Part shown: positions 4,943 through 61,557 of the stretch, in pieces
Layout: each line of letters begins with the position of its first letter
How positions within the stretch are numbered: position 1 is the first letter of the stretch
Source: a virus
Strand: one strand, 5' to 3'
Length of the DNA stretch: 64,000 bases
IMG/VR virus record: IMGVR_UViG_3300028008_001363
Span: 35,857 to 99,856 of that record
The notes under the pieces: model-generated
The model's input: only the letters and a program-made list of their open reading frames with translations
What the model was told of the DNA's origin: nothing
The model's database searches: none
Program-made: the position numbers and the translations under genes

Positions 4943-4950
4943 GATAAATA
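4943..4950 (+). promoter_or_regulatory. T4-late-like promoter box GATAAATA
   Basis: Variant of T4 TATAAATA, 5 nt before ATG 4956; the same box recurs before several other genes. Confidence 0.6.
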
Positions 4951-34295: not shown

Positions 34296-34916
34296 TCAAA
34301 CAGTATTATGCCTATTCCAGGTATGATATGATTTCTTTGTACTACCGTCTTTGGGCGGTAGACAAAATACCATGTGAAATCTAAGATGCTCACCTGCATT
34401 TAAGGCAGTATGTCTCTTAGTTGTGTCTACCATGTAGGTAGTACTCTCATGTAACTTTTCAGTCTTATCATCTATTATCATAAAACATCCATCATTCGTT
34501 ATCAATGGTAAATGAATTCTAGGTGTTTCATCATAGTGATATGTTAAGCATGATTTCCAGTTCATCATCATATATCTACCACGAACTGCTCCATACTCTT
34601 TAAAAATAGTATTGATTACTTCTTCAGTGTATGTGCCTTTTAAGTAATCACAAACTTCTGAAAAATCTTCTTCTTGTAATATTACATCACGTACTTTAGG
34701 TTTTGAATTAGGGTCAGAGGCATCATGGTAGTCATAATCTACATATAAACTAAGAGTACCTTTTAGTCTTTGTTCTTCTTCTGGCGTACCTGACATAGTT
34801 TGAAGCATCATCTGACCATTATTCTTAATCAAAAATTTCTCAATATTCATATCATTGAATTCTTTTCTAAGTTTATCATAGTCGATATTTAATTCTAATT
34901 CAGTAACATTACTCAT
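34296..34916 (-). CDS. Asp/Asn beta-hydroxylase-like 2OG-Fe(II) cupin
   Basis: HYD...RIHLPLITN...HTALN...RFHMVF. Confidence 0.75.
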   Translation of the reverse strand: MSNVTELELNIDYDKLRKEFNDMNIEKFLIKNNGQMMLQTMSGTPEEEQRLKGTLSLYVDYDYHDASDPNSKPKVRDVILQEEDFSEVCDYLKGTYTEEVINTIFKEYGAVRGRYMMMNWKSCLTYHYDETPRIHLPLITNDGCFMIIDDKTEKLHESTTYMVDTTKRHTALNAGEHLRFHMVFCLPPKDGSTKKSYHTWNRHNTV

Positions 34917-34920
34917 GTCA

Positions 34921-35829
34921 TTATTCCTTATCCAATTCTAATTGTATAGCATTCTGTATTTCATCTGTTATACAAATTTTGTTTCCCTTTTCATCATGGA
35001 CCCACATCCATATTTCTAATGCAGTATATCCTGGATGGTCGTTAACATATTCTTCTTGTATCATCTTTGCTGGTGCAGTTACATATAATGGTCCAAACTT
35101 TGGTAAGATTGCGTTTGCCACAGTTACTGCATTGATATTATAATAGTTATAGTTCATTAGTTTACTTATAGGAATAGTTAAACTTGGTGCTATATCATTA
35201 CCAAACAATATTCCTGCTCTTATTCCACCCAACAGAAAAGACTTACTAAGACTGAATGCTACACAATCTATAACGGGATTCTCAACATTCATAGTTTCTA
35301 AAGACGTTCCATAGAATGCACAGTCCAAGAATATCTTACTATTTGTTCTCTCGCATTGCTTTATTAGTTCAGGAAACCACGTTGAAATACTTCCTGTATG
35401 ATTAGGTTGACTAATGATTATGTAACTGTTTTCTTCTATCGTCTCTAGGTCCGTATGGTGGATACACTCCGCCGTATATGGAGACAATAAAGCAGTATAA
35501 AACATATAGTCATCATTGAAGTAATAAAACTTGTTAACTGTTTTAGATTTGTATGCAACTTGATTAACTATGGCATCATGGATTCCATTACAAAATGCCC
35601 ATTCACTAAACTTATCTACACCAGAAAATCTATATGTCCAATTTAACCAGTTAGCATGATAGTCATCTAGTTCATCAGATGAACCTTTGTTCTTCATATG
35701 CAAACTGTCTAATACTTTTCTGACCTGATTTGGACAAAAACTATGTACTGAACCTTCAGGTGAAAGTGTCGATGCTGGATACTTTCCTCTTTCTAATAAG
35801 TACATTGTGTATGAGTTCGCTAACACCAT
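34921..35829 (-). CDS. PLP-dependent fold-type I enzyme (aminotransferase-like)
   Basis: ISQPN, IFLDCAFYG, FSLSKSF...GIRAG (PLP Lys). Confidence 0.75.
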   Translation of the reverse strand: MVLANSYTMYLLERGKYPASTLSPEGSVHSFCPNQVRKVLDSLHMKNKGSSDELDDYHANWLNWTYRFSGVDKFSEWAFCNGIHDAIVNQVAYKSKTVNKFYYFNDDYMFYTALLSPYTAECIHHTDLETIEENSYIIISQPNHTGSISTWFPELIKQCERTNSKIFLDCAFYGTSLETMNVENPVIDCVAFSLSKSFLLGGIRAGILFGNDIAPSLTIPISKLMNYNYYNINAVTVANAILPKFGPLYVTAPAKMIQEEYVNDHPGYTALEIWMWVHDEKGNKICITDEIQNAIQLELDKE

Positions 35830-36425
35830 ATATTCTCAATAATATGACAGTACATACTCAATCGTTGTTCGTCAGGACCTATACACATATCTGGGTTTCC
35901 ATGTAATTGTGTTTTGTTATTAATCATCATATATCCTGTGTTTTGAATACAATCAAATTGATGTCTAACTTTTGGTATTGGGCCCTCACCATCTTTGTAG
36001 TAGTATTTTTGAAGTGTGTCTTTTTCGTATATTTCACTTTCATCTACATCAAAAAATATAGTCGGAGAACTATCATTATTTGTTAGATAGAGTTGCATAA
36101 CCTTATCAACTTTTGAATTATCGATATGTCTTGTTATGGAAAATCCCTCTAAGTCTAACCAAAACGCCGGCCATATTGATTCTATTTTCATTTGTAGTAC
36201 TTCTTCTAAAATACTTTTTTTAGAATTAATATGTTTTTCTATACGTTCAAAAACACTATGGGGTTCAACTATAATACATCTTCTATTCTTTTGTTCCTGG
36301 GTTTTTTGAGGTTCCCATGGCATATCCATTAGATTTAATTGTGAAAGTTCATGTATTAATTCTTCTGATACTGCATCTTTTATTGCAAACAGATTATTTA
36401 AATCATCTATTGGTCTTATATTCAT
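35820..36425 (-). CDS. 2OG-Fe(II) oxygenase-like protein
   Basis: FWLDLEGFSITRHIDN (HxD), QLYL, LHG, RLS; paralog of 62714-63334. Confidence 0.75.
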   Translation of the reverse strand: MNIRPIDDLNNLFAIKDAVSEELIHELSQLNLMDMPWEPQKTQEQKNRRCIIVEPHSVFERIEKHINSKKSILEEVLQMKIESIWPAFWLDLEGFSITRHIDNSKVDKVMQLYLTNNDSSPTIFFDVDESEIYEKDTLQKYYYKDGEGPIPKVRHQFDCIQNTGYMMINNKTQLHGNPDMCIGPDEQRLSMYCHIIENIWC

Positions 36426-36458
36426 TTGTCTTTCCTTTCATAATGAATAATTTAATAG

Positions 36459-36614
36459 TCACTTCTTAATCTTCTGTTCTGTATATTTACAATGCTTTCG
36501 TATATACGGGTCATACATATTCAACGTCATCTTTTCTGGATGTAGTCTTTTATTTTTATGTCGTGTATAAAAATGTGCTGACTCTGTTGATTGCATTCTT
36601 ATTTTTTCTCGCAT
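36459..36614 (-). CDS. rpmG: 50S ribosomal protein bL33 (51 aa; not in ORF track)
   Basis: Hand translation [51 protein letters not shown] aligns with L33 (REKI..S...HFYT..KNKR..PEK.....DP..R.H..Y.E.KIK); AAGGA RBS. Confidence 0.88.
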
Positions 36615-36623
36615 AGTTTCCTT

Positions 36624-36842
36624 CTATTTTTTACAGTTACACGAACCACTTTTCGCACCTACATAACCAGCAACAATACCAATTATACCAGTGATACTCA
36701 TCTGGAGTAGTTCTATAATATTCGAGTCTAACTCACCGCCATTTTCTCTAGCCATCATAAACTCATCTACAACAATAAGTCCTAGAATACCCATCAAACT
36801 TATTGCCATTACTAGAACAATAATTCCTTTAATATTTTCCAT
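36624..36842 (-). CDS. Small two-TM membrane protein
   Basis: Two hydrophobic helices; start reassigned to MENIKG (36842). Confidence 0.6.
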   Translation of the reverse strand: MENIKGIIVLVMAISLMGILGLIVVDEFMMARENGGELDSNIIELLQMSITGIIGIVAGYVGAKSGSCNCKK

Positions 36843-36843
36843 T

Positions 36844-36963
36844 TTATCTCCTACGAATAGCATCATGGAATTTAACCATCTTTTCCAATGCTTCTACTCG
36901 TTCAGTTAATCGCCCAATTTCCTCTAACAGTTCTTTGACTGTCTTCTCTAATTCATCTGCCAT
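36844..36963 (-). CDS. 39-aa coiled-coil peptide (not in ORF track)
   Basis: MADELEKTVKELLEEIGRLTERVEALEKMVKFHDAIRRR fills the gap exactly between neighbours. Confidence 0.55.
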   Translation of the reverse strand: MADELEKTVKELLEEIGRLTERVEALEKMVKFHDAIRRR

Positions 36964-36966
36964 ATA

Positions 36967-37188
36967 CTATTTTTTAGTTGTTAATTTTTTCTTTACAGTC
37001 TTTGCCTTCTTAGTAGCCTTTGGTTGCACCTCCTTAATAGGCTTCTTAGTAATTGCTTTCTCTGTACTCTTATTTAGTTTCTTTCCTTTACCAGATAGAT
37101 ATGCTGGTGCTTTATTTTCACCTCTGTATGTTGCAGGGTCTACTCCTTTTCCAAAGAATAGTTCTGTCAATGAAGGTAGTTTTAACAT
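36967..37188 (-). CDS. Lys-rich small protein
   Basis: Start MLKLPS (37188) after AGGAG; histone-H1-like K/T/A tail. Confidence 0.6.
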   Translation of the reverse strand: MLKLPSLTELFFGKGVDPATYRGENKAPAYLSGKGKKLNKSTEKAITKKPIKEVQPKATKKAKTVKKKLTTKK

Positions 37189-37189
37189 G

Positions 37190-38368
37190 TTACTTCTCCT
37201 TTTTAAATGATTTATCACCTGGATATATGGGTACCATTGCTCCAGGTTTACGTTTTGGTATCTTACTGTCTGCACTACTTACACAACTTTCACTAATACA
37301 AACTCTTGGTTTATCAAATAGTTTAAAGCCACTCTCTACATACCCTAATGGTTCGTCCGCACAACTGTATGAACGTTTTATACTGCCATCTGGTTCTCTA
37401 ATAATGATACCTTTAAACCCACTTGTACATTCCCAGCCCTTAAACTTATTAAAGTTAAAAGCATTGAAACGTTCTGCTTGGTCCATGTACCATTTCTTTC
37501 CTTTACTGTCTTGGAATTCTACTTGCATTTGGTGTGGCACTGATTTGTCATCACCATTTATCGCATCCATTCTCCACATACTACCTGATTTAGGTTTTGG
37601 TCTTACTACTTTTATGCCAGTTTCTTCTTGTAGTTTAGATGTGAAGTCTCTTTGTGGCATGCCTTTACGCATTGTTTTTAATTGTTCGTCTGTGTAACCA
37701 GATACTACGAAAGATGCAGTTGGGTCACTCTGAGGTTTTAATGTAACATTTATACCACGATTGTGAAAGTATAATGCTCTTTCCCAGTCTCGGTCAAACC
37801 ATTCAGGAACAAGAACCATGTTGATTGTTACGTGTACATCATGTTCCATACAGTACAATAACTTATCAGCAAACTCTTCTTCTTTCGCATACTCACTATG
37901 GAATGATGCTGTGATACTTGCTCGGTGCATTTTTGCAACTGTTTTGCAATAGGTTTCATGCCACTTCATATTACGTGACATGTTAGTTGTCATATGAACA
38001 GAAGTATAATTAGTATTATCCACATCTCCAGCGAGGTGATTGAGGATGTCCAAATAGCCAGGATGAAAAGTAGGTTCACCACCAGATAAAGAAAAGTGAA
38101 AAGAGTTAAATCCATTTTGTCTTGCTTGCCTTTTTATTTCGTCTATCGTTGCTAGACATAGTTCAGTTGGTCTGTGGTCTTTACGGTCACTTCTAGCATA
38201 CGGCCAACAGTACGAACACTTGTAGTTGCAGAAACGTCCTAATAACCAACTTACTGAAAATAAATCTCTATATAAAAGGGTTCGTTGTCCTACACTAACG
38301 AGGTCATCGAATGGTATTTCTGTGAAGTCATATTGTGACCAATATAATTCGTCTGTTTTATCACTCAT
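37190..38368 (-). CDS. Radical SAM protein with C-terminal Cys domain
   Basis: WLLGRFCNYKCSYC, SGGEPT, FKGWECTSG...SC...CISESC. Confidence 0.92.
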   Translation of the reverse strand: MSDKTDELYWSQYDFTEIPFDDLVSVGQRTLLYRDLFSVSWLLGRFCNYKCSYCWPYARSDRKDHRPTELCLATIDEIKRQARQNGFNSFHFSLSGGEPTFHPGYLDILNHLAGDVDNTNYTSVHMTTNMSRNMKWHETYCKTVAKMHRASITASFHSEYAKEEEFADKLLYCMEHDVHVTINMVLVPEWFDRDWERALYFHNRGINVTLKPQSDPTASFVVSGYTDEQLKTMRKGMPQRDFTSKLQEETGIKVVRPKPKSGSMWRMDAINGDDKSVPHQMQVEFQDSKGKKWYMDQAERFNAFNFNKFKGWECTSGFKGIIIREPDGSIKRSYSCADEPLGYVESGFKLFDKPRVCISESCVSSADSKIPKRKPGAMVPIYPGDKSFKKEK

Positions 38369-39344
38369 GTATGAAGTCTCTCCAATTAGTTCCGTGTATT
38401 TTGTCCATTATTTCACTTTGTTCTATCAACTGTTCTCTTAGTAATTTATCTTCCATCGCATCTGGCGACATAAACGCAGGTCGTATAACTGGTGTCGATG
38501 AGAAACAATCAATGTTATTATCATTGCACCAACCTAATATTTCATGCATATGCTTGTGATTAAAAACCATAGGCAAAACTGATACTGTCACATAAGAATT
38601 ACTTGGTTTTAATTTATTGAACTTCACAAGGTTTTCACTCGTTTGTTTCCAACTTGAACCTGGTCGTATATACTCATAGCGTTTGCCTATTGCTTCAATA
38701 CTCACATTTATCTGTATTCTTCTAAACTTCTCAAACAAATGATTCCAGTCTGTCATATCATAACTTCCATTTGTTATCAATTGTACTTCAATATTAGAAG
38801 AAACTCCTTCGTCTATTAGTCTTTGTATAATCTTTTTTACTTGTGGTATCATAAATGGTTCACCACCTGTAAACTTTATAATCTTTGCATCTAACATAAG
38901 ATGACTAAACTCTAATGCTTTTTTTGTCCAACGTGTCTTTGGTTCTTCGTGTCTTGCTTCGTATCCGTACCAATTATATTCTTTATTATCTCTTATGAGA
39001 TTTGCCCATTTACTACTACTTCCTGGATGACACATTCGACAAGCAAAGTTACAAGTATTGTTTATCTTTAAATCCCAATGCTTAATACCAGTTTCACCTT
39101 TGAACTGGTCATTGTATGTTGTTCGTAAACTTCTACCTGTTAGTTCTTCACTTAGTTTACACTCAGCACATCCATCTAGCCATTCTGTCTCACTTTGCTT
39201 ACCCCATTCAGCATGTCTTGTTTGCCAATCATCATCAAAATATAATAGTTCTTCATCGGGTTTTGACAACCATGCACAACAGGGTCTTATAGTAGACGTG
39301 GTATCTATTACTACACCATGTTTAAATATTGCACATTCTGGCAT
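38361..39344 (-). CDS. Radical SAM protein, N-terminal twitch type
   Basis: RPCC, CAEC, CNFACRMC, TGGEPF. Confidence 0.92.
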   Translation of the reverse strand: MPECAIFKHGVVIDTTSTIRPCCAWLSKPDEELLYFDDDWQTRHAEWGKQSETEWLDGCAECKLSEELTGRSLRTTYNDQFKGETGIKHWDLKINNTCNFACRMCHPGSSSKWANLIRDNKEYNWYGYEARHEEPKTRWTKKALEFSHLMLDAKIIKFTGGEPFMIPQVKKIIQRLIDEGVSSNIEVQLITNGSYDMTDWNHLFEKFRRIQINVSIEAIGKRYEYIRPGSSWKQTSENLVKFNKLKPSNSYVTVSVLPMVFNHKHMHEILGWCNDNNIDCFSSTPVIRPAFMSPDAMEDKLLREQLIEQSEIMDKIHGTNWRDFIHE

Positions 39345-39353
39345 TACTGTTTC

Positions 39354-39710
39354 CTACTTATGGCTCATCCCACATGGCTCATCAAATCTAACATTGAAGA
39401 AACGTTGCTTGGTTCTATAAGCCTTCTCAACTATTTCATAATCTATTCCAACTGTATTTAACACAGTTTTAATATCTTCTCTGTCTTCCTCTGCCATTTC
39501 TTCACGTACATTATCTCTAATGTCTTGTTCTACCATATCATATATACTACTAAAACACCACTCACAAAATGTAACTGGCATCACACCAAAGAGTCCTTGA
39601 ATTCCACCACACGATTCATCATATTCATCGTTACAAATAGAACATTTTGGTTTTGGTTTAGATGTTTGCAATTCACGTATGTAGTCATTCGCTGTTCTTT
39701 TTTTCATCAT
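39354..39710 (-). CDS. Zinc-finger hypothetical protein
   Basis: CSIC...FCEWC. Confidence 0.6.
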   Translation of the reverse strand: MMKKRTANDYIRELQTSKPKPKCSICNDEYDESCGGIQGLFGVMPVTFCEWCFSSIYDMVEQDIRDNVREEMAEEDREDIKTVLNTVGIDYEIVEKAYRTKQRFFNVRFDEPCGMSHK

Positions 39711-39843
39711 CCTTCCTATTCTTTAAAACAATATGTATATACCATTTCATTAACCATTCAACTTTCCTAGGGTATTGGTCTGGATTAGGTATCTTATCTT
39801 CTCCAAAGTAATCAATAAATCCTTGTATATCTTCATCACTCAT
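39685..39843 (-). CDS. 52-aa hypothetical protein (not in ORF track)
   Basis: MSDEDIQGFIDYFGEDKIPNPDQYPRKVEWLMKWYIHIVLKNRKDDEKKNSE; ATGA overlap with the upstream stop. Confidence 0.6.
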   Translation of the reverse strand: MSDEDIQGFIDYFGEDKIPNPDQYPRKVEWLMKWYIHIVLKNRKDDEKKNSE

Positions 39844-40163
39844 AATGGAATATCCCTATTCTCTTTAGCACAGTGTGATTGACAAACTTCTAGTTTACTC
39901 ATATTGTTTTCAATCCACTCAAAGATTGGACCTTCTATAATCTCTTCCATAGAATAATGATGTATGTTATGATACTTCTTATCTATACCAGATTCATTCC
40001 AAAGTCCAGTCATTCTTCTTGTAATGCCAAACCAACAACAAGGCAGTACATATCCTTTTGATGTGATATAAAGATTGCCCATTGTTTTATGAAATGTTCC
40101 TTGTCCATTTCCAACAGCCGCTTTACACTTTGGTTGTATCTCAAAAGTTTTGTTCCAAGTCAT
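39840..40163 (-). CDS. Stand-alone SPASM/twitch Fe-S domain
   Basis: PKC...LYITSKGYVLPCCW...VCQSHC; matches the C-terminus of 50998-52101. Confidence 0.8.
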   Translation of the reverse strand: MTWNKTFEIQPKCKAAVGNGQGTFHKTMGNLYITSKGYVLPCCWFGITRRMTGLWNESGIDKKYHNIHHYSMEEIIEGPIFEWIENNMSKLEVCQSHCAKENRDIPL

Positions 40164-40876
40164 ACTAAGCCCTCGATTCCTACATAACCTTCTGGTAATA
40201 CAATCTCATCTATTTCATTTGCAGGGTCTGTGTTTCTAAAAGACTTAATCACCACAAATCTATCAAAGTTCTCATCTTCAGATAGTTTCTTAATGTCACT
40301 TATCTGATGCTGATTCCATTTGAATACAATAAACTGCCACATCGCTTTGCCACCTGAAGAGATATATGCTCTCCAGTTCTTTTGTAAAGTATTCCAATCA
40401 ACATTCTTTCTATAAAGATGATTGGTTTCTTCATCTCCGTCTATTCCGAATACAACTACTAAACGGTTGTTTAATTCTTTAGATAATTCTCCTAACTCAC
40501 TCCAGAAACTTTCATTTCTTGACCCACCATTCACGTGAACCCAAATGTCTTTTTCTTTATTGTCCAGGTGATAGAAATACTTTATGATTTCTATTACATC
40601 TGGATTTATTACTGGTTCATCTAAGTTGCCACACAAGACTACTTCGTCTAAGTGTGACCATCTATCAGGCAGAAATGTCTTCTTTATATCTGCTACTGAT
40701 AGATAGGTATTATTCAGTTCAACATCGTAATCTAAAGTAAACGTATCTCGTTCTTCAGTCTTTTCATTCTGAAGTTTAACAAGATAACTTCGTTCACACT
40801 GTGGACAAAAGGCATTACAATAGTTTGTTATTTCTAACTGTAAACGTCCTATATTGCCTTCGGTTGCCCACAACAT
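40160..40876 (-). CDS. Radical SAM core domain lacking its C-terminal Cys domain
   Basis: EITNYCNAFCPQC, CGNLDEP, FGIDG, WQFIVFKWNQHQ. Confidence 0.88.
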   Translation of the reverse strand: MLWATEGNIGRLQLEITNYCNAFCPQCERSYLVKLQNEKTEERDTFTLDYDVELNNTYLSVADIKKTFLPDRWSHLDEVVLCGNLDEPVINPDVIEIIKYFYHLDNKEKDIWVHVNGGSRNESFWSELGELSKELNNRLVVVFGIDGDEETNHLYRKNVDWNTLQKNWRAYISSGGKAMWQFIVFKWNQHQISDIKKLSEDENFDRFVVIKSFRNTDPANEIDEIVLPEGYVGIEGLV

Positions 40877-40879
40877 TTA

Positions 40880-41683
40880 TCAATCAATGTCCAGTTCTGG
40901 CCAAGTGGCTAATGATTTTTCTGCTGAATAGTTGAATATCTCTGCGGTTGCCCATTCTTTTTCAATACACCACCAACACCCTTTACATTCTTTTGTAAAG
41001 TTCTCTGTCTCTTCAATCCAACCTTCACAAGACCTAGTCAATGCACCAAGAGAAGCAAGTAGTCCATACTTCTTATAGAATGCTAGTACAATTCTTTTGT
41101 CTGAATGAATGAACGGTAGATATTCAGTATGGTAATCGCATCTGCATTCACTTCTTTCATCAATCCACCATTGGCGATTGTCCCAATCTCTACGTTCTGC
41201 TCTACGCTTCCATCTCTTTCTCCAGAGTGGTGCGCCAATTTCTTCAGGTGGGTTAACAGTTACACCATTAAATAATGCAGTAATGTTATGCTTGGCAACC
41301 ATGTCCCATGACAATCTAGTTCCATTATCAATGTAATCTTTTGCTGTAGTCATTCTAACCATATGCTCACCAAACTTTACATTAGGGAAAGCATTCATTA
41401 CAAACTCACGTGCTTTTGCGGCATAGATATGTTGCCATGGCTTTTCTTCGTGGCAACAAGACCATACATAGATTGTAATATCTAGGTCATTCTCATTAAT
41501 ATGGTGTGCTAATAACCACAACAATATTGATGAATCCATGCCACCTGACATTCCAATACCAATATTCTTATGAAAACCCCAATCTTTCGATTCGAAAGGT
41601 AATGTGATTTTGTACTCTTCGGGATGTGCTTCTTCCGCATTGTTTCCCCGTCTGTAAACAATGGCTCTGTCTTCAATAATCAT
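40880..41683 (-). CDS. QueC-like PP-loop ATP pyrophosphatase (paralog 1)
   Basis: MSGGMDSS, PF..SDK, TRSCE, CKGCWWC. Confidence 0.8.
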   Translation of the reverse strand: MIIEDRAIVYRRGNNAEEAHPEEYKITLPFESKDWGFHKNIGIGMSGGMDSSILLWLLAHHINENDLDITIYVWSCCHEEKPWQHIYAAKAREFVMNAFPNVKFGEHMVRMTTAKDYIDNGTRLSWDMVAKHNITALFNGVTVNPPEEIGAPLWRKRWKRRAERRDWDNRQWWIDERSECRCDYHTEYLPFIHSDKRIVLAFYKKYGLLASLGALTRSCEGWIEETENFTKECKGCWWCIEKEWATAEIFNYSAEKSLATWPELDID

Positions 41684-46527: not shown

Positions 46528-46530
46528 CTA

Positions 46531-47895: not shown

Positions 47896-47904
47896 AATAT
47901 ATCC

Positions 47905-49214: not shown

Positions 49215-49215
49215 T

Positions 49216-50751: not shown

Positions 50752-50944
50752 CTTTACCTTGTTCTTCAAAGTCTTTTTTCATCCATACCAGATTATTAAT
50801 ATCGCCTCTTGTTAAGCCAATATCTCTTAAGTCTCTGTTTGATAATCTGTTTAGATGCTTAATAGTGTCCCGATGCATTTGCCATGTCATCAGATATTTC
50901 CAGTATCTATACGGAAGTGTATAGATTCGTTTAAATAGTGTCAT
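50744..50944 (-). CDS. DUF1127 / YjiS-like small protein
   Basis: RDTIKHLNRLSNRDLRDIGLTRGDI fits the R..L..L.D..L.DIG..R.DI pattern; start MTLFKR after AAGGAG. Confidence 0.8.
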   Translation of the reverse strand: MTLFKRIYTLPYRYWKYLMTWQMHRDTIKHLNRLSNRDLRDIGLTRGDINNLVWMKKDFEEQGKDD

Positions 50945-50981
50945 AATATTTTTGTTTCTCCTTCTTATTATCAACAATCAG

Positions 50982-50989
50982 TATTTATC
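50982..50989 (-). promoter_or_regulatory. T4-late-like box GATAAATA (minus strand)
   Basis: TATTTATC on plus; intergenic, upstream of DUF1127 and the rSAM array. Confidence 0.55.
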
Positions 50990-50997
50990 TACTGAGT

Positions 50998-54281: not shown

Positions 54282-55228
54282 TACTTTATTCCTATCTTAA
54301 GAAAGTATTGTCTCCCCTCAATAGTTGTAACTCCAGTATATTGTACAAATGTCATTGGAAAAGTATCATTGAATGATTGTGAACTACTGAATGGTCTATG
54401 AATACCACTCTCACCTGCTTCACCAACAAGAACTACTTTTCTAGTATCTGGTAACATAGCATACCAATCTTCCTGTTTCTCTAACAAACTAACATTTGTA
54501 TTGATTACTAAACCAGGAACTTCTTTAAATGCGGTAGATAGTTGACCATCTGGTAACAATATCTCTAATGTGTTCTCTGCATAGTCAACATCAAAAAGGT
54601 CTTGAGTAGATGATTTGAAACGCCAGTTATCAAGCACTTCATCTTTCATCATTTCATCAGCAAGGAACTTACATGTTCCATTTATGTCTAAGTTTCTAAT
54701 GTTCTCAAAACGTAACGATGTATCTAAAAGCATTGCACCCATAATGCCTATACCACCACCTAATACATATGCAGTACCTAAGTATTTTTCACCATATACT
54801 CTTGTCATGCTTTCAATAATCCATGAATAAATTATTGCATGGTGTTTATTAACAAATGAACTTATATCTACGTTAGGATAACTATAGATTAAGTCTTTAA
54901 GTCTTTCAACAATCTTATCGTTATTATTATTTCTAGGTAAAGTTGTGTGAGCCAAGAACTCCATTGCTTGTCGATAGTTACCCAACTGCTGTGCAACATT
55001 TCTTTCAGAATACTTTTCTGCTAGTCTTGTGAAGTCGTACTCTTCTCCCATGAGAGGTCGAAATCTCTTTCTCGCAACAGTCTGTTCTTTTATCTCAGCA
55101 ACATATTCTACTGTTTCTTCTGGAGCATCAAAGACTTCATTTTCCATTGCTATGTAAATGTCATCGTTAGAAGTCACATTGTTTTTATTTCTTCTACGTC
55201 TCTTTTCTCGTATCGTTGATTTAGCCAT
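54281..55228 (-). CDS. Methyltransferase-like paralog (degenerate) with basic N-terminus
   Basis: MEFLAH, YLGTAYVLGGGIG, LDINGTC, INTN; clearly paralogous to 53493-54281; start MAKST. Confidence 0.6.
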   Translation of the reverse strand: MAKSTIREKRRRRNKNNVTSNDDIYIAMENEVFDAPEETVEYVAEIKEQTVARKRFRPLMGEEYDFTRLAEKYSERNVAQQLGNYRQAMEFLAHTTLPRNNNNDKIVERLKDLIYSYPNVDISSFVNKHHAIIYSWIIESMTRVYGEKYLGTAYVLGGGIGIMGAMLLDTSLRFENIRNLDINGTCKFLADEMMKDEVLDNWRFKSSTQDLFDVDYAENTLEILLPDGQLSTAFKEVPGLVINTNVSLLEKQEDWYAMLPDTRKVVLVGEAGESGIHRPFSSSQSFNDTFPMTFVQYTGVTTIEGRQYFLKIGIK

Positions 55229-57986
55229 TAGTATCTTCCTCAAACTTTGCCTTTAACCATTCATAGTCATTAATTTTACTTAATGCATCATCATCACCGG
55301 CATGCGTTGTTCCATATTCTCTTCCTGCATTAGCACCCGCTATTGCATATTCTCCAAACTTTGCATCGTTATTAACAGTACACCATATTTCTAAACGCTC
55401 ATCAGTCTCACCTTGTTTAGACCTGTGAATGACACTTGATGATAGTTTAGTACACTCTCTGAAAGCAGACTTCCAGGTGTCATATGGATTAGTATTAAAT
55501 GCTGTGTAGTTTGCTTCTGATGGCATTGGCTTGAACTTGTCAGATATAGAAGTTGTAAAGTCAACACGCCATTCTTTAGCATCACGTAGCAATTGTGTTG
55601 GAAATAGTTTTAGTCCACCAAAACCATAAACTAATCCGTTAATTGGATTCCTAGATTTCCAAACATGAACTGTATCTTCATCCCATACTGTTGGAAAATA
55701 ATCAAACTTAAAGTCATCAAGTAAAATAGCATCAGCATCAATCACATAAAACATTTTTGTATCTGCTATCTCTGATGCTCTTTGGTGTGCATTAAAGATA
55801 CCTTTCACACCATGAACTCTTTTAGCATGTGGGACTTTCTCTAACAACTTGGCAAAGTTTGCATCTGCTTCTGGTTCCTGATAACTTAACATAACAACAT
55901 CGTAAGGAATATCCTGTGCTTTAATCAATTCAGATTTAACAGGCTTCTTATTCTTAAATGTCATCTTTCTTATCTTATCACTGTTTGGTTTAAGATGAAG
56001 TAATGCTTGTGCTGGAATCAATTTCAGTCCACCATATTGGTGAACAAATCCAGTTGATGGGTTTACTTTCGGCCACACATGAAAATGAGATGCATGGTGT
56101 CTATCAACATAAAGTGTTCGGTCAAAGTCAGTTAGAATATCAACATCATTATCAATTGCCCAGAAATATCCAGTATCAGTTTTCTTTGCGGCTTGAATGT
56201 AAGTTTCTTCTAAAGGTCCAGTTAGTATCGTAACTGTTTCATCATCTTTGTATTTTTCTGTATTAGAGGCATACATCCCCTCATCAAAATAAAACACTGG
56301 GTGACTAGATACCCTTGATGCAACTTCTTCAACTCTAATAATATTCTTAAATCTATCAAAAGAAAAGTCTTCTTTAGATGGTTTAAAACTAGAAAGATGT
56401 GGACGATGAACTAGATATACACCAGCACCTGCTTCGCCCTCAGACTTGAATGCGAATACATTTTCTATTGAGAATATATCTGGATAGAAATCGAATGTGA
56501 ATGTATCTAATAGTTCTACAACAGTATCAACTACCCAATAGAATACTTCTTTCTTTGCTCGTTGATAAGCACTGTATGGGTCACGAGTATCATATCTTTT
56601 GATAGACATTTTATCTGGAATACGTGACGCAATCTCTTCATGGAATATGATATTCTTTGGATGATAATCTATATTACTGTACGCAACACCACCATAACCT
56701 AATTCTGTTTCGCCATCTCGTTTACTAAACTGCCATAAATGTGTAGGTCCAGTTTCATATAAATCTGGATAGAAGTTACTACTGATTGATGCTGTTTCTT
56801 CTAAGTCTGGGTTAATCATCCAGAAACTATAACCAGTTGCTTGTGGTATCGCTTCATCAATAGTTCTTGCTTTAATTACTTGTATCTCATCTATAGTACC
56901 AACAGTCTCCATAATATCTTTCTGTTTATCGACATTAGGATTTACAGTAGGTATAAGACGTACACCATTTCGTACTTCTTTACCATTAGCAAGTCTCACA
57001 TTGAAGTTATGAATAAACTCTCTATCATAACTCATTGGATAATATTCTGGTTTAAAGTTCTTTACATCTTCGTGTACAAGCCAATACATGTCACTGTCTG
57101 TCTTGTGGTCAAATGAATGTAAGTCCTTTGTTCTTATGACTTCGAATTCTATATCAGAACAAATAGATTCTTTTTCGTATATCGCATCTCTTCGAAAATT
57201 AAATATATCATATGCTTTTTCATCAAACAACTTTCCATCTTTTGGAAATAAACCAACGCCATGATACTCACGTGCGTTTTTAGTAATTGGGTTTACTTTT
57301 TGCCAGACTATTATTTTTTGTTTATCTTTTGCAAGACCAAAACCATTTGAGTAATCGAACTCAAAAGAATCATTAACTCTTGTGCCGGGCATAATTAGAT
57401 AATAGAAATCTGTTCTTGCTTCTTTTCTACACTGTTTATGTACTTGTGTGCTAGACTCACCCTCAACTACATGAATGGTATGTTTATCTTCGAGTCTTTT
57501 TAATTCTTCATAACCACAACCTTTGTCCCAAAAGAATATATCATACGCTTCTGTTGTTGGCTTGTATTTTACTTTTTTAGTCTCATGTAATTTGTGTTCA
57601 CCAGTCATGTAATAAGCATCAGTTATAAAACCTGGGTCTTTTACTTTTACATCATTTGTATTGAATAACTTTATGCCCACTAGACTTCGGAATACATTTC
57701 GTTCTTCACAATTCCACATGTGGGTTATCTTATCATTAGACGAGTCTGTTTCATATCCAAAGTCAAAATCAGAATCAACTTTGACTTCTGGGTCAATTAT
57801 CCAGAAATGTTTTGTATTTGATATAGACGCAATTTTAGATACGGCTGCCTCGACTTTAGGGTCCGACCAATCTTCAAGGTTAATCTTGACCATACGAAAA
57901 TTAGGGTATACTTCTCGTATTTCATCAAACCTTTCGTTTGTCTCTTTATCAGTCTTGTATGTTAGATAAAATCCATCGTATGCCAT
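55221..57986 (-). CDS. Multi-repeat glycosyltransferase (GT-A)-like protein
   Basis: Several repeats of YD.F...T..FW[VI][VI]D; the last keeps FYVIDADA (DxD) and GFGGLKLFP. Confidence 0.6.
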   Translation of the reverse strand: MAYDGFYLTYKTDKETNERFDEIREVYPNFRMVKINLEDWSDPKVEAAVSKIASISNTKHFWIIDPEVKVDSDFDFGYETDSSNDKITHMWNCEERNVFRSLVGIKLFNTNDVKVKDPGFITDAYYMTGEHKLHETKKVKYKPTTEAYDIFFWDKGCGYEELKRLEDKHTIHVVEGESSTQVHKQCRKEARTDFYYLIMPGTRVNDSFEFDYSNGFGLAKDKQKIIVWQKVNPITKNAREYHGVGLFPKDGKLFDEKAYDIFNFRRDAIYEKESICSDIEFEVIRTKDLHSFDHKTDSDMYWLVHEDVKNFKPEYYPMSYDREFIHNFNVRLANGKEVRNGVRLIPTVNPNVDKQKDIMETVGTIDEIQVIKARTIDEAIPQATGYSFWMINPDLEETASISSNFYPDLYETGPTHLWQFSKRDGETELGYGGVAYSNIDYHPKNIIFHEEIASRIPDKMSIKRYDTRDPYSAYQRAKKEVFYWVVDTVVELLDTFTFDFYPDIFSIENVFAFKSEGEAGAGVYLVHRPHLSSFKPSKEDFSFDRFKNIIRVEEVASRVSSHPVFYFDEGMYASNTEKYKDDETVTILTGPLEETYIQAAKKTDTGYFWAIDNDVDILTDFDRTLYVDRHHASHFHVWPKVNPSTGFVHQYGGLKLIPAQALLHLKPNSDKIRKMTFKNKKPVKSELIKAQDIPYDVVMLSYQEPEADANFAKLLEKVPHAKRVHGVKGIFNAHQRASEIADTKMFYVIDADAILLDDFKFDYFPTVWDEDTVHVWKSRNPINGLVYGFGGLKLFPTQLLRDAKEWRVDFTTSISDKFKPMPSEANYTAFNTNPYDTWKSAFRECTKLSSSVIHRSKQGETDERLEIWCTVNNDAKFGEYAIAGANAGREYGTTHAGDDDALSKINDYEWLKAKFEEDTNG

Positions 57987-58025
57987 CGATATGTCAGTCC
58001 AAATTTAGTTGTTGTCTATCCTCTT

Positions 58026-58054
58026 ATTATAACAGATTTTTAGTCAGATGTAAA
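58026..58054 (-). promoter_or_regulatory. sigma70-type promoter (minus strand)
   Basis: TTTACA, 17 nt, TATAAT with TGn, reading leftward into the GT-like gene. Confidence 0.6.
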
Positions 58055-59596
58055 GACTTTTACGTTATAATGTTTAGAAAATTCAATAGCGTCATGCTCA
58101 TCATTTACTATTGGTTTCCCTTTTATATTTAGTGAGGTGTTAACTAACATTGGACAGCCAGTTTCTTCTTTGAATCTGGACAGTAGGATATATAAATCTG
58201 GATGTTGTAACTGGTTCACTGTCTGTACTCTACTAGTACCGTCTATGTGAACAATAGCAGGAAAATCTTTTGGATGCTTACATTTCGCAACGAACTGCAT
58301 GTAGGGTGATTGTGTGACGTTCTCTGGCATCTCAAAGTAATCATGTACGTCTTCTTCTAAAATCATTGGTGCAAATGGTCTAAACTTCTGTCTGCGTTTA
58401 ATCTCATTCATCTTATCTTTAATTGATGGACCTCTTGGGTCTGCTGTAAGTGTGCGATTGCCTAATGCTCTAGGACCAAACTCTGCACGTCCGTTAGCAA
58501 TGCCAATAATCTCTCCATCAAGTAATGCTTTCAATGATTTCTCTACAGGATAGTCGCCCTCTATATTATGACCAAGATATGGTGATTGCCAATTTAGATT
58601 CCAACTAGTACTGTTATACTTCTGTGCAACACCTATAGAACTTCCTGCATCACCAGGATTAGGCATAATCCAAATATCTTTGAAACCATACTTACTTGTT
58701 ATCATGCTATTCGCTGTGCAATTCAAAGCACAACCGCCCATCATTACTAAGTTTTCAGTAAATGAAACTCTTTCCTTTGCTAACTTTATTACCCTGTCTA
58801 ACATGACTTCATATATTTCTTGGGTTGCGGCTGCCAAATCAAACATATCTTGCTCTGTATGTAACTCTGGTAAAAGCCAATTACATCCTCTATGTAAGTT
58901 TTTCTTAAATGTATGTAATTTATTCGAGTGCGTTTGTATGCCCAACTCTTTCATTATTGCATTCTTTAGAGTTATGCCATTGTATTTTCTATCAGCATCA
59001 CCATAGGCAGCCATTCCCATAAGAATATACTCATCTTCTTGTGCTTTAAGTCCTAGTCTCTGTGTCATTGCACTATAGAATAGTCCAAAACTATGTGGAT
59101 ATCCTTGAGAATAAACCCTAGACAATTTACCACCAGAACCCTGCCATATTGTCAGAGTTTCCCATTCACCAATGCTATCAATTACCACAACAGCGGCATT
59201 TACATAGCCACTTGTATAATATCCACTTGCGGCATGGGTATAATGATGGTCTTGGTATTCAATTGGTATGCCTTTTAATTCTGGAAACTGTTTTAGATAC
59301 TTTGCTGGCAGTTCATTCATATCAAATGCAGTAGAATATTGACCAGCATATAACTGTCTTACTTTCTTTAAGTATGGATTTTCATACCAAGCAATGACAT
59401 CCGGTTTACCATACCGAAGTGCTTCTTGGAGAAGTTCGCTATTGAGTAATGGGTCGTTCTTAATTTTAGAGTATCGTTCAGAGTGAGAGGCAAATAGAAT
59501 TTCGTCTCCCTTTATAATGCTCACTGAAGCATCATGGTTTAAAGCACCACCGACACCAAGAACTGTCTTATGATTATTTGTATATGAACGGGTCAC
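58040..59596 (-). CDS. Carbamoyltransferase (NodU/CmcH/TobZ family)
   Basis: NHDAS, ERYSKIK, HHYTHA, DSIGE, EYILMGMAAYG, GGCALN, EFGPRALGNR, FRPFAP, NTSLN; start codon uncertain (GTG). Confidence 0.95.
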   Translation of the reverse strand: MTRSYTNNHKTVLGVGGALNHDASVSIIKGDEILFASHSERYSKIKNDPLLNSELLQEALRYGKPDVIAWYENPYLKKVRQLYAGQYSTAFDMNELPAKYLKQFPELKGIPIEYQDHHYTHAASGYYTSGYVNAAVVVIDSIGEWETLTIWQGSGGKLSRVYSQGYPHSFGLFYSAMTQRLGLKAQEDEYILMGMAAYGDADRKYNGITLKNAIMKELGIQTHSNKLHTFKKNLHRGCNWLLPELHTEQDMFDLAAATQEIYEVMLDRVIKLAKERVSFTENLVMMGGCALNCTANSMITSKYGFKDIWIMPNPGDAGSSIGVAQKYNSTSWNLNWQSPYLGHNIEGDYPVEKSLKALLDGEIIGIANGRAEFGPRALGNRTLTADPRGPSIKDKMNEIKRRQKFRPFAPMILEEDVHDYFEMPENVTQSPYMQFVAKCKHPKDFPAIVHIDGTSRVQTVNQLQHPDLYILLSRFKEETGCPMLVNTSLNIKGKPIVNDEHDAIEFSKHYNVKVFTSD

Positions 59597-59777
59597 GTTT
59601 CTTCAGTTCTGCTAGTCTAATTTTTACTGCTTTTCTGTGTTGATACCATGCCCATGGATATGTTACAATTGACCAAATCTTTTTTAATATATTTTTCATA
59701 ATTTTATTTATCTTTCGTTTTAGTCGGAACTTCTTACTGCCATCTAACGGTCCAGGTCCAGGTGTGTAATGATTCAC
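59574..59777 (-). CDS. Small basic protein ending RDPFIYK
   Basis: 67 aa, overlaps the carbamoyltransferase start. Confidence 0.6.
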   Translation of the reverse strand: MNHYTPGPGPLDGSKKFRLKRKINKIMKNILKKIWSIVTYPWAWYQHRKAVKIRLAELKKRDPFIYK

Positions 59778-60509
59778 TTATCCTTTACCCGCACGTGTGT
59801 TTTCAATATCAGCAAATATAATCTCTGCCCAGTCACTGTGTGCTTGTTCGTCTGGATGCATATATCTTTCATCACCTTCTACTGGAAAGAACATTTTCTT
59901 TTCATACATATAGGTAAAGAAAGTCTGGTCTTCATATATACGAGTCATATCTAATTGAGCGAACACATCCTTCATGTCTGCTTGTTCACATAACTCTGTG
60001 AAGTGTGTCGGTTCAAGTAGATTTGGTGTTAGGTTAAGACTATTAAATATAACGTACTCTAGTCCATTATTCACACAAAAATTCTGTAATGTTAATACTT
60101 GAATAAGATAATTGTGAAAATCATAGACTGGTGACCAGAAATGTTTCATATACAATTGATTGAATTTATCTAAGTCTGTATTTGTTTCTTCATTCAATCT
60201 AATATTGCCGTGGTATTCGTGTGATGGTATATTATGAATTAATACATTTTGACTTTCAATGAAGTGTTCTCTGCGATTTGGTGCAGTAAGTCCGATTGCT
60301 ACAAATGGTTTCTTCCCATTTGCAATCAACTCTGAAACATTTGTGATTGTTTGTCTAACAATGTATTGATTACTAATTCCACGTTCTGCGTCAGTTTGAA
60401 CATCTTCCTTATTAATGCCTAACTTCTCTGCAAGTTTAAAAGGCCATGCTGTATCTTTAAGTGCTAGACCTGTGCCGTACGTAAAACTACATCCATTTGC
60501 GTATAACAT
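59778..60509 (-). CDS. SGNH-like hydrolase/acyltransferase
   Basis: MLYANGCSFTYG (block I variant), GISN, C-terminal MHPDEQAH; start reassigned to 60509. Confidence 0.7.
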   Translation of the reverse strand: MLYANGCSFTYGTGLALKDTAWPFKLAEKLGINKEDVQTDAERGISNQYIVRQTITNVSELIANGKKPFVAIGLTAPNRREHFIESQNVLIHNIPSHEYHGNIRLNEETNTDLDKFNQLYMKHFWSPVYDFHNYLIQVLTLQNFCVNNGLEYVIFNSLNLTPNLLEPTHFTELCEQADMKDVFAQLDMTRIYEDQTFFTYMYEKKMFFPVEGDERYMHPDEQAHSDWAEIIFADIENTRAGKG

Positions 60510-60511
60510 TT

Positions 60512-60841
60512 TTAGTCCTTCTTCATAGTGAATGATTCGCCACATCCACAAGTATCACCTGCTAGTGGGTTTTCAAACTGAAAGCCACCATTGATGCCTT
60601 CTTGTTTGTAATCTAATTGAGTACCATCAATCATTATTAATGATTTGGTGTCTACGATAATAGTAACACCTTTGTCTTCAAATACATTATCACCTTCGTC
60701 TATTTGGTCAGCGAATTCAATGCCATATGCGAAGCCTGAACAACCTGTTGTTGTAACCTTTACTCTAATTCCTATGCCTTTACCTCTATTTTCTAAGAAG
60801 TTGTTTACTCTGTTGGCACCCTCTTCGGTTATTGTTAACAT
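60512..60841 (-). CDS. iscA: A-type Fe-S carrier
   Basis: TGCSG and CGCGESF motifs. Confidence 0.95.
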   Translation of the reverse strand: MLTITEEGANRVNNFLENRGKGIGIRVKVTTTGCSGFAYGIEFADQIDEGDNVFEDKGVTIIVDTKSLIMIDGTQLDYKQEGINGGFQFENPLAGDTCGCGESFTMKKD

Positions 60842-60852
60842 CTTATATTCCT

Positions 60853-61176
60853 TTATACTTCATCTGGATAATCTCTATACAGAAAATGTTGAATTGTTTC
60901 TACGTCTACCATGCTATTAAAACTAACATGTTTTGTTTCGATATCGTCATCATTACGAATTACATGTGTCATCGCATCATCTAATTCTTGCATTGTATGA
61001 AATTCCATATCAATGCGAAACTCTGGTAAGTCCATACTGCGAAAGCCAAGTTTCATTCGTGTAATACGATAATCATGCATTGTTGGAAGTGAGTCCAGAA
61101 ATGTTCTCATATTTGTAACGAACTCTACCGGATTTGTGCCTTCTTTTACGTCAGCATATATTGTATAAATGTTCAT
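60853..61176 (-). CDS. Hypothetical protein (ferredoxin-like alpha/beta barrel pattern)
   Basis: 107 aa between iscU and iscA; RITRMKLGF, FLYRDYPD. Confidence 0.6.
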   Translation of the reverse strand: MNIYTIYADVKEGTNPVEFVTNMRTFLDSLPTMHDYRITRMKLGFRSMDLPEFRIDMEFHTMQELDDAMTHVIRNDDDIETKHVSFNSMVDVETIQHFLYRDYPDEV

Positions 61177-61179
61177 TAA

Positions 61180-61557
61180 TTAATCTTGTTTCTTTTGATA
61201 GTCAGCGATTGCCGATTTGATTGCATCTTCGGCTAGAACTGAGCAGTGAATTTTAACAGGCGGTAATGCCAATTCTTCTACAATATCCATATTCTGTATG
61301 GCTTCTGCTTCTTCTAATGTCATTCCTTTTACCCATTCTGTGAGTAAACTACTACTTGCAATTGCCGAACCACAACCATATGTTTTAAACTTTGCATCTG
61401 TAATTATACCTTCTTCAATCATAATTTGAAGTTTCATTACGTCTCCACATGCTGGTGCTCCTACCATACCTGTTCCAACTTTGGGGTCGTTCATATCCAT
61501 TTTACCTACATTTCGTGGGTTTTCATAATGGTCTAACACTTTGTCTGAATAAGCCAT
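61180..61557 (-). CDS. iscU: Fe-S scaffold protein
   Basis: DHYENPRNVG, APACGD, GCGSAIAS, LPPVKIHC. Confidence 0.97.
   Translation of the reverse strand: MAYSDKVLDHYENPRNVGKMDMNDPKVGTGMVGAPACGDVMKLQIMIEEGIITDAKFKTYGCGSAIASSSLLTEWVKGMTLEEAEAIQNMDIVEELALPPVKIHCSVLAEDAIKSAIADYQKKQD

Follow-up and report, generated by a model that had tools for sequence, protein, structure and literature searches.

A radical SAM-rich gene block in an uncultured jumbo phage: a candidate pathway for a tailored sugar-containing product

The window analysed here is the final 64 kb (64,000 nucleotides) of a 99,856-bp virus contig (G000; IMG/VR record IMGVR_UViG_3300028008_001363, positions 35,857 to 99,856). It contains a 28-kb minus-strand block that holds 10 of the window's 12 genes for radical S-adenosylmethionine (SAM) enzymes (rSAMs), together with genes for putative glycosyl-, carbamoyl- and methyl-transfer enzymes. 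On balance, there is about an even chance that this block encodes a phage pathway that builds and heavily tailors a sugar-containing product, i.e. a glycan, glycopolymer or glycoconjugate. Because the core of the block is syntenic among phages and has a cellular counterpart, a single pathway is indicated and the tailoring of a sugar or glycopolymer is favoured. An initial annotation of the window had described the block as a dedicated multi-step modification pathway rather than a set of random auxiliary metabolic genes. The overlaps between genes, the conserved order of five core families and the recurrence of the combination in a cell all agree with that description, and the accompanying caution that the substrate cannot be read from sequence is upheld.

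The contig is estimated by CheckV to be ~26% complete, ~74% of the genome being absent from the record. Its family-B DNA polymerase (PolB) shares 48% identity with the Agrobacterium phage Atu_ph07 enzyme and 42% with those of Rak2-type jumbo phages, and relatives sharing the block encode a T4-type capsid protein, gp23. By these likenesses, the contig is a fragment of an uncultured T4-superfamily jumbo phage. DNA of this phage was detected in many marine metagenomes, and two relatives carrying the block are complete genomes with terminal repeats (G001, 342.6 kb, and G002, 328.1 kb). The block is tightly packed, most genes overlapping or lying 0-10 nt apart. Its core genes, referred to below by their first coordinate, are as follows (aa, amino acids; GT, glycosyltransferase).

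58040-59596, minus strand: carbamoyltransferase of the NodU/CmcH/TobZ type (PF02543, E 1e-40, 140 bits; PF16861, E 3e-55, 187 bits)
55221-57986, minus strand: 921-aa tandem array of ~7 GT-A-type modules, the last of which (residues 690-921) is the sole complete unit with an invariant DxD
52102-53493, 53493-54281 and 54281-55243, minus strand: three paralogous class-I methyltransferase-like genes (paralogy, Gly-rich motif)
50998-52101, minus strand: family B rSAM with a SPASM-like C-terminal region (Pfam and paralogy)
49216-50769, minus strand: flagship N-terminal-twitch (N-twitch) rSAM (NF033640, 430 bits)

More than 3,900 database proteins are homologous to the flagship rSAM 49216. Its orthologs in 73 IMG/VR loci (45-94% identity) were used for synteny analysis, in which ±10 kb around each gene was examined. 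A 50998-type rSAM gene lies directly upstream in 68 of the 73 loci; a 52102-type methyltransferase-like gene, one to three GT-A units and the carbamoyltransferase were found in 47, 45 and 29 loci, respectively, the last with its order conserved, and a 37190-type rSAM (family C, see below) in 19-42. The order of the five-family core (carbamoyltransferase, GT-A unit, methyltransferase-like protein, SPASM rSAM and N-twitch rSAM) is kept in many loci. In two of them (L009 and L013), the ortholog of the rSAM gene 30388, which lies outside the block in the window, is located between the 50998 and 49216 orthologs, and the dispersed rSAM copies therefore belong to the same system. The genes 38361-47895 are common to only 3-4 loci, and in G001-G003 (the records of L013, L031 and L051) rSAM genes are scattered over several genome regions. 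In distant phages, a gene of the GatZ/KbaZ-like (sugar-phosphate) family is present upstream of the carbamoyltransferase gene.

A comparable array was identified in a cellular metagenome-assembled genome (MAG) labelled Candidatus Parcubacteria (L080-L077-L081; G023:C2:805395-866750), on a 1.27-Mb contig in which no phage PolB homolog and no gp23 match were detected. This co-oriented array lies between the genes for enolase and phosphoglycerate mutase (iPGM), holds at least 12 rSAM genes and includes orthologs of 49216 (56% identity), 50998 (48%), 37190 (59%) and 46531 (38%). Its helper genes encode a Glyphos_transf/Capsule_synth (CDP-glycerol glycerophosphotransferase/capsule-type) enzyme, a GT4, an rSAM-GT2 fusion, a YrdC and a TsaD/Kae1-like protein that together correspond to a split carbamoyltransferase, an AsnB-like amidotransferase, a class I/II aminotransferase, an SDR and an aldo-keto reductase-ferredoxin. 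The Glyphos_transf/Capsule_synth enzyme and the rSAM-GT2 fusion have no phage counterpart, and the remaining helpers are analogous rather than orthologous to those of the phage (GT4/GT2 versus the GT-A unit, AsnB-like versus QueC-like, and split versus fused carbamoyltransferase), which makes the recurrence of the functional classes more telling. This cluster is the strongest independent evidence for one pathway. A Bacteriovoracaceae MAG contig carries the core too, and the 48-59% identity of the core rSAM orthologs in the Parcubacteria-labelled array suggests horizontal transfer between cells and jumbo phages.

A motif scan of the open reading frames (ORFs) of the window found exactly the number of CxxxCxxC rSAMs given in the initial annotation, 12 in total with 10 in the block. 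In addition to 49216 and 50998, they are listed here together with a small protein encoded among them.

3706-4935, plus strand: seventh N-twitch rSAM, outside the block (NF033640, 191 bits)
30388-31473, plus strand: second family C rSAM, outside the block
37190-38368, minus strand: family C rSAM with weak STM4011/viperin-like matches
38361-39344, minus strand: short N-twitch rSAM paralog (NF033640, 188 bits)
39354-39710, minus strand: Cys-rich small protein of 118 aa without a family match
39840-40876, minus strand: split family B enzyme, consisting of an rSAM core (40160-40876) and a 107-aa SPASM piece (39840-40163)
41684-42892, minus strand: family B rSAM with a SPASM-like C-terminus (Pfam and paralogy)
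42885-47895, minus strand: four tandem N-twitch rSAM paralogs (NF033640; 42885-44054, 217 bits; 44051-45343, 191 bits; 45343-46527, 210 bits; 46531-47895, 351 bits)

PF04055 matches 11 of the 12 rSAMs, 10 of them above the gathering score of 29.5 bits; 50998 falls under it (24.7 bits, E 2.9e-5). Sequence comparison divides the 12 into three old paralog families, A (seven members), B (three) and C (two). The family A proteins are all members of the NCBIfam family NF033640 (N_Twi_rSAM), scoring above its curated cut-off of 170 bits. Four cysteines (C27, C45, C108 and C111) located upstream of C164/C168/C171 are invariant in the alignment of the seven paralogs, and CNxxCxxC and GGE are also kept; in 49216, residues 27-112 are matched by Pfam SPASM at 19.9 bits (cut-off, 21.5). 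Family B comprises 50998, 41684 and the split 40160/39840, all with a SPASM-like C-terminal region. The core of the split enzyme, 40160-40876, is a clear paralog of 50998 (E 2e-38), and its NF033640 match is partial. Its two genes overlap by 4 nt, and because the same two-gene layout recurs in a distant relative (L043:8997-9945), 39840-40876 is probably a natural split enzyme rather than the result of a frameshift error. Family C comprises 37190 and 30388, and orthologs of 37190 in the relatives and the cellular cluster are 59-83% identical to it. The rSAM paralogs are mutually 20-35% identical, and each has its own ortholog with 80-90% identity in L004; the copies are therefore old and have been maintained separately.

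Thus, the profile hidden Markov model and structure searches suggested in the initial annotation placed 7 of the 12 rSAMs in NF033640 and resolved three families, with weak structural matches for 49216 (TM ~0.3). No characterised reaction of NF033640 was located in a literature search, and searches of PDB sequences with 49216, 50998 and 37190 returned nothing usable. Among cultured phages, the matches to 49216 are confined to Vibrio phages K566/K567 and Ralstonia phage RsoM2USA (24% identity), 50998 matches only CP220, F379 and Pelagibacter phage Mosig (24% identity to the CP220 and Mosig rSAMs), and no match was found for 37190.

The multi-repeat GT-A-like protein and the carbamoyltransferase named in the initial annotation were both supported. 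The modules of the 921-aa protein recur with the pattern FWxIDxD ... HxW..NP..GG.KL.P, and the acidic pair is kept in only ~3 of the seven. At the same position, distant phages carry one to three separate genes of ~235 aa, whose products align solely with residues 693-921, the last module. Searches with this unit gave no match in Pfam, NCBIfam or PDB sequences. An AlphaFold model of the C-terminal 232 aa, built from 34 homologs, has a pLDDT of 88 and resembles B4GALNT1 (VIA Z 11.6; root-mean-square deviation, 2.8 Å over 139 residues), the match lying in the first 142 residues of the unit. STIV A197, WrtF, SpsA, chondroitin synthases and PBCV-1 A64R were also matched, with many GT-A enzymes at Z 9-11, and D61-x-D63 is invariant in the 34 sequences. 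The GT-A-like assignment is thus supported at the level of the modelled fold, from which we infer glycosyl transfer. The carbamoyltransferase contains a Kae1-like N-terminal domain and a YrdC-like C-terminal domain, with PF02543 and PF16861 both above cut-off. The other candidate tailoring enzymes of the block, and a micro-ORF associated with the carbamoyltransferase, are as follows.

59577-59699, minus strand: 41-aa micro-ORF behind a GATAAATA motif (59712-59705), ending in RLAELKKRDPFIYK
47905-48555, minus strand: QueC-like PP-loop ATPase (SGGVDSS, C-terminal CGECWWC)
40880-41683, minus strand: second QueC-like PP-loop ATPase (SGGMDSS, CKGCWWC)
35820-36425, minus strand, distal: protein with an HxD...H pattern only (no usable PDB match)
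34921-35829, minus strand, distal: class I/II aminotransferase-like protein (weak Aminotran_1_2 match at threshold; SLSKSF...GIRAG motif)
34296-34916, minus strand, distal: member of the Asp/Asn beta-hydroxylase family (PF05118)

Beginning 5 nt past GATAAATA, the micro-ORF runs into the start of the carbamoyltransferase gene. The C-terminal motif of its product, RLxELRKRDPFIY(K/R), is kept upstream of the carbamoyltransferase in 16 loci, even where the enzyme is only 54% identical, and in several distant phages forms the C-terminal tail of the GatZ/KbaZ-like protein (345-355 aa), for which no usable PDB sequence match was obtained. Complex prediction for the carbamoyltransferase and the peptide gave a score of 0.56 (median of three runs), the best control scoring 0.00. 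Of 80 solved complexes and 110 mismatched pairs, 58 and 2, respectively, reach the mark applied to these predictions, and scores of 0.60 or less include 7 of the 80 solved complexes and both passing mismatches. The runs agree in at least 16% of contacts, and the pLDDT of the peptide partner is at least 60. This modelling weakly supports a pairing of the 41-aa peptide with the carbamoyltransferase.

Other assignments of the initial annotation stood in part. The three methyltransferase-like genes are indeed paralogous, but Pfam gave no match for them, and their nearest Pfam-bearing ESM Atlas clusters (Methyltransf_31) provide a lead only. Both PP-loop paralogs carry SGGxDSS and SCE...CxxCWWC, the Cys cluster of which presumably corresponds to the zinc site of QueC, but neither reaches the cut-off of the QueC family PF06508: 47905 scores 20.8 bits (cut-off, 22) and 40880 has no match. 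In the ESM Atlas, 47905 falls in virus-only clusters in which 54-77% of members bear PF06508, again a lead; no usable PDB sequence match was found for it. Of the two iron/2-oxoglutarate oxygenases, 34296 was verified by its PF05118 match and 35820, with nothing beyond the pattern, was not. For the pyridoxal phosphate enzyme 34921, the Aminotran_1_2 match is weak and at threshold, and the SxSK...GxRxG motif is kept; similar genes recur in 13 loci.

The initial annotation had further proposed that the pathway brings its own iron-sulfur (Fe-S) and SAM supply, encoded by iscU/iscA at the head of the block and metK at 12.8 kb. Pfam confirmed the identities of these genes, which are listed here with their neighbours.

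61623-62627, minus strand: 334-aa protein without a family match; its gene immediately follows a late-type GATAAATA motif (62668-62661) and heads the iscU-iscA sub-operon
61180-61557, minus strand: IscU Fe-S scaffold (PF01592, E 1.2e-52, 178 bits)
60853-61176, minus strand: DUF6614 protein encoded between iscU and iscA (PF20319, E 2e-20)
60512-60841, minus strand: IscA/A-type Fe-S carrier (PF01521, E 4e-19, 69 bits)
12814-13896, plus strand: MetK S-adenosylmethionine synthetase (three Pfam domains, E 4e-33 to 5e-58)

A second iscA copy is located upstream of the window (contig 28552-28857), and the DUF6614 protein may be an accessory factor of Fe-S assembly. The phage Fe-S set consists of a scaffold and a carrier only: cysteine desulfurase (IscS), ferredoxin and HscAB were not found in the Pfam results for the window ORFs, the remaining genome not having been subjected to a dedicated search. 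The proposal of a dedicated supply did not hold up. Only in the 4-5 closest loci do the iscU/iscA genes lie next to the block, and in 22 records of the clade, each with 4-21 rSAM matches, IscU, IscA and MetK were found in 7, 9 and 12 records, respectively. Most of these records are fragments, and the two complete genomes weigh most. In G001 (15-17 rSAMs), IscU, IscA and MetK are present, tens of kb from the rSAM block. G002 (21-22 rSAMs, of which ~15 are N-twitch) is the complete relative richest in rSAMs and encodes only IscA, without IscU or MetK; G003 (65% complete, 18-19 rSAMs) encodes only MetK. Given the patchy distribution in the 22 records and the gap in G002, the supply genes are not integral to the pathway and are frequent companions that probably boost its capacity. 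Genes for DUF59/PaaD-like (motif only), ClpP and ClpS-like proteins were observed near the rSAM core in other loci (L019:11-271, L056:4472-4777, L065:6332-6937 and L024:295-606), echoing an Fe-S-related gene set in marine phage genomes (Nishimura et al. 2017, PMC5332604).

Putative transcription units of the block were delineated by the motif [G/T]ATAAATA, which presumably resembles the T4 late promoter TATAAATA. There are 23 matches in the contig, all co-oriented with genes, and 12 of the 23 lie in the 4.2% of the DNA that is non-coding. In the window, the motif occurs at 4943, 12003, 17543, 19016, 22605, 29827, 31741, 33918, 45469, 50989, 59712 and 62668, and one match in the contig precedes a gene for a virion structural protein. 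The only sizeable gaps in the block hold motifs (62668, 59712 and 50989), which appear to divide it into an Fe-S unit, a carbamoyl/GT/methyl/50998 unit and a unit extending from 49216 to the distal genes. These motifs suggest late expression, and the product would hence be virion-directed. The motif is often located only 5-10 nt before an ATG; such spacing would imply leaderless or very short-leader late transcripts. A scan of 44-63.5 kb for σ70 promoters and terminators detected sites no more frequently than in shuffled sequence. Of the words sampled from 49216-59000, 48-88% are present in six marine metatranscriptome runs. RNA-library contigs of four runs span almost the entire 42.8-62.75 kb region with 95-100% identity; because DNA carry-over is possible and neither strand nor level is given, these are not counted as proof of expression.

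Three further genes of the block complete the list.

59778-60551, minus strand: DUF6071 protein (PF19547, E 1.5e-10)
50744-50944, minus strand: DUF1127-like small ORF of 66 aa with its own ribosome-binding site, behind a GATAAATA motif at 50989-50982
48555-49214, minus strand: ThyX thymidylate synthase (PF02511, E 8e-46)

For 59778, Pfam gives only DUF6071 and PDB no sequence match, and the earlier SGNH reading was not verified; its true start is probably the ATG at 60509. The 66-aa ORF contains the stretch LSNRDLRDIGLTRGDI, which we take to be DUF1127-like. It sits between core rSAM genes and outside the window was found only in L003. The position of this ORF and its ribosome-binding site imply the ATG at 50751 as the probable true start of 49216. 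ThyX is adjacent in only 9-10 loci, and both ThyX and a bL33-like ORF are passengers in the block. In G001, a ThyA-family gene (G001:C1:92723-93568, 338 bits) lies ~3 kb from the rSAM block, where the window has ThyX; thymidylate synthesis genes were repeatedly observed to adjoin the block. Elsewhere, the window encodes a phosphomannomutase (Pfam) and, at 21.4-26.2 kb, a ligase-halogenase-ketosynthase cassette. An 809-aa protein (L079:15039-17465; contig 35039-37468) runs into the window at 2-1612; its residues 1-230 match a PHROG annotated as cytidyltransferase (E 2e-11), and its N-terminus has no PDB sequence match.

From the gene content, paralogy, folds, conserved synteny and cellular counterpart described above, we infer the catalytic roles, a sugar as the substrate, and the timing and target of the pathway as follows. 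The GT-A-fold modules would transfer (nucleotide-)sugars, and the carbamoyltransferase would O-carbamoylate a hydroxyl via carbamoyl-AMP, perhaps in concert with the conserved peptide that ends in ...RDPFIYK. The QueC-like PP-loop enzymes could convert a carboxylate to an amide (or nitrile) with ATP, the aminotransferase-like protein could add amino groups, the Asp/Asn-hydroxylase-type oxygenase could add hydroxyl groups, and the methyltransferase-like paralogs could methylate. The more than 10 rSAMs of three families would catalyse different C-H-activating steps, such as oxidation, epimerisation, C-methylation, deoxygenation and C-C/C-S bond formation, for which IscU, IscA and MetK would be optional factors raising the [4Fe-4S] loading and SAM-making capacity of the infected cell. 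The product would probably end up on the virion. Such a set of enzymes is characteristic of tailored glycans and of antibiotics derived from sugars; the moenomycin pathway, for example, includes a carbamoyltransferase, AsnB-like amidotransferases, GTs and an rSAM methylase. Further hints of sugar chemistry are the GatZ/KbaZ-like gene of distant phages, the phosphomannomutase of the window and the cytidylyltransferase-type PHROG match of the 809-aa protein. A more specific proposal can also be put forward, although it is less likely than not to be correct. The N-twitch family and its two companion rSAM families may perform serial C-H functionalisation of a virion-attached sugar chain built by the phage GT-A modules. 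This would be a radical-chemistry hypermodification of glycans without a characterised counterpart, shared horizontally with surface-polymer clusters of Bdellovibrio-type and candidate phyla radiation (CPR)-type cells, and the ...RDPFIY(K/R) tail may dock the carbamoyltransferase.

Several points weigh against a sugar-containing product. None of the block enzymes is closely related to a characterised one; the assignments of the methyltransferases, the SGNH protein and the second oxygenase are no more than leads; the late-promoter reading of the motif is tentative; and the window showed no gene set for nucleotide-sugar synthesis, no flippase and no polymerase. The fold of the GT unit is matched by cytidylyl- and other nucleotidyltransferases too (Z 9-10), and the nucleotide-metabolism setting (ThyX within the block, an adjacent DHFR gene, and ThyA ~3 kb off in G001) would suit a nucleotide or DNA target. 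In addition, the solved structures nearest to the model of 49216 (SkfB, SuiB, anSME, CteB, BlsE, DesII, viperin and MoaA, all at TM ~0.3) mix peptide maturases with sugar and nucleoside enzymes, and the search did not separate peptide-acting from sugar-acting relatives. The top neighbours among these, i.e. anSME and the maturases SkfB, SuiB and CteB of ribosomally synthesised and post-translationally modified peptides (RiPPs), point to a pathway in which the twitch/SPASM rSAMs would cross-link, epimerise or oxidise phage residues or peptides in a RiPP- or anSME-like manner and the GT-A modules would glycosylate the same protein, as in glycocins. Secondary NCBIfam matches are likewise mostly peptide maturases, the peptide S-glycosyltransferase SunS is among the GT-A matches, and small conserved ORFs (41 aa, 66 aa and a Cys-rich one of 118 aa) are present. 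Modification of a protein or peptide is nevertheless unlikely: the structural matches are weak, neither an RRE/PqqD-type leader-binding domain (in the Pfam results for the block) nor a repeated or Cys/Gly-rich precursor family accompanying the rSAM paralogs across the loci was found, the partners that stay constant are enzymes of carbamoyl, glycosyl and methyl transfer, and the cellular counterpart contains capsule/teichoic-type and GT4/GT2 enzymes, not a precursor, protease and exporter.

Clusters for moenomycin, blasticidin/polyoxin and aminoglycosides use rSAMs, carbamoyltransferases, amidotransferases, aminotransferases and GTs. The presence of the same enzyme classes here, with BlsE among the structural matches and the ligase-halogenase-ketosynthase cassette in the window, would fit a diffusible product derived from a sugar or nucleoside, similar to aminoglycosides or peptidyl nucleosides and directed at the host or at competitors. 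However, neither an exporter nor a resistance gene nor a core scaffold-forming enzyme was recognised, the enzymes of the cellular cluster are of polymer type, and a slow, multi-step secreted metabolite would be of little gain to a lytic jumbo phage, so that we rate biosynthesis of a small molecule as distinctly improbable. Thymidine hypermodification pathways include rSAM, pyridoxal phosphate and transferase enzymes, and this likeness, the thymidylate setting noted above and the QueC-like paralogs speak for decoration of a DNA base, as a protection against restriction, by the QueC-like, rSAM, transferase and carbamoyltransferase enzymes. No match to TGT/DpdA (PF01702) was found in G000, the two complete relatives and two further fragments, whereas the control matched 14 of 14 reference genomes; the known route for insertion of 7-deazaguanine is missing from the contig and both complete relatives, and 7-deazaguanine modification of DNA is therefore unsupported. 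Moreover, G002, G003 and G004 contain no strong candidate for a ThyA-type hydroxymethylase, the QueC scores are under the Pfam cut-off and the cellular counterpart is a surface-polymer-type cluster, leaving hypermodified DNA or nucleotides with only a small chance of being the product. Accordingly, of the candidate substrates in the initial annotation, the glycan gains most, and the hypermodified base built with QueC-like enzymes loses a required transglycosylase. The conserved order of the five-family core, the translational coupling and the occurrence of the same combination in a cellular chromosome make it highly improbable that the block is a hot spot of accumulated, unrelated auxiliary genes, even though ThyX and the bL33-like ORF lie within it, its content varies greatly (38361-47895 being so rarely shared) and the rSAM genes of complete relatives are dispersed over several regions.

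Phages with many rSAMs have been described previously. Campylobacter phages CP220 and CPt10 encode 11-12 rSAMs, five of which belong to an exchangeable module of unassigned role (Timms et al. 2010, BMC Genomics, PMC2853527). CP220 is likewise a T4-like phage with many rSAMs, one of which is 24% identical to 50998, and no CP220 match to 49216 (N-twitch) or 37190 (family C) was obtained at E 1e-5; its rSAMs pair with a putative amidinotransferase, not with a carbamoyltransferase/GT-A core, and its host is a gut Campylobacter. Nishimura et al. (2017, mSphere, PMC5332604) reported marine T4-like viral genomes that encode up to 12 rSAMs along with an A-type carrier, IscU or both, e.g. the 183-kb TARA_ERS488813_N000010 with an A-type carrier and 12 rSAM genes, and proposed that viral Fe-S scaffolds serve virus-encoded Fe-S proteins. 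The phage studied here resembles those genomes as a marine T4-type phage with ~12 rSAMs and phage-encoded IscU and/or A-type carrier; that study describes no rSAM families, GT/carbamoyltransferase core or product. NF033640, a catalogue family, is represented by seven copies in the window and 11-15 above the cut-off in the complete relatives. No relevant literature on rSAMs or glycans of jumbo phages was located beyond these 2010 and 2017 papers. Since phages with 11-12 rSAMs and the viral Fe-S link have already been published, the block is a further case of a recurrent kind. Soluble, multi-domain viral glycosyltransferases of the GT-A fold are likewise known from chlorovirus PBCV-1 (A64R) and mimivirus (R655/R699) and were among the structure matches, a likeness at the level of the fold only (Z ~8.7-8.9) to systems of eukaryotic viruses. 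To our knowledge, these glycosylation systems contain no rSAM arrays.

The main contribution of this window is a test of the own-supply idea, which indicates that genes for Fe-S and SAM supply often accompany the rSAMs in the clade and are not required. rSAM enzymes catalyse reactions that are among the most difficult in biology, and the jumbo phages of one widespread marine and freshwater clade devote 15-30 kb to 4-22 of them, together with a conserved glycosyl-, carbamoyl- and methyl-transfer core. Naming the product would reveal what several large families of orphan enzymes do, would show which target the phages decorate (the virion, the host surface or DNA), and would explain the presence of Fe-S assembly and SAM synthetase genes in some marine phages.

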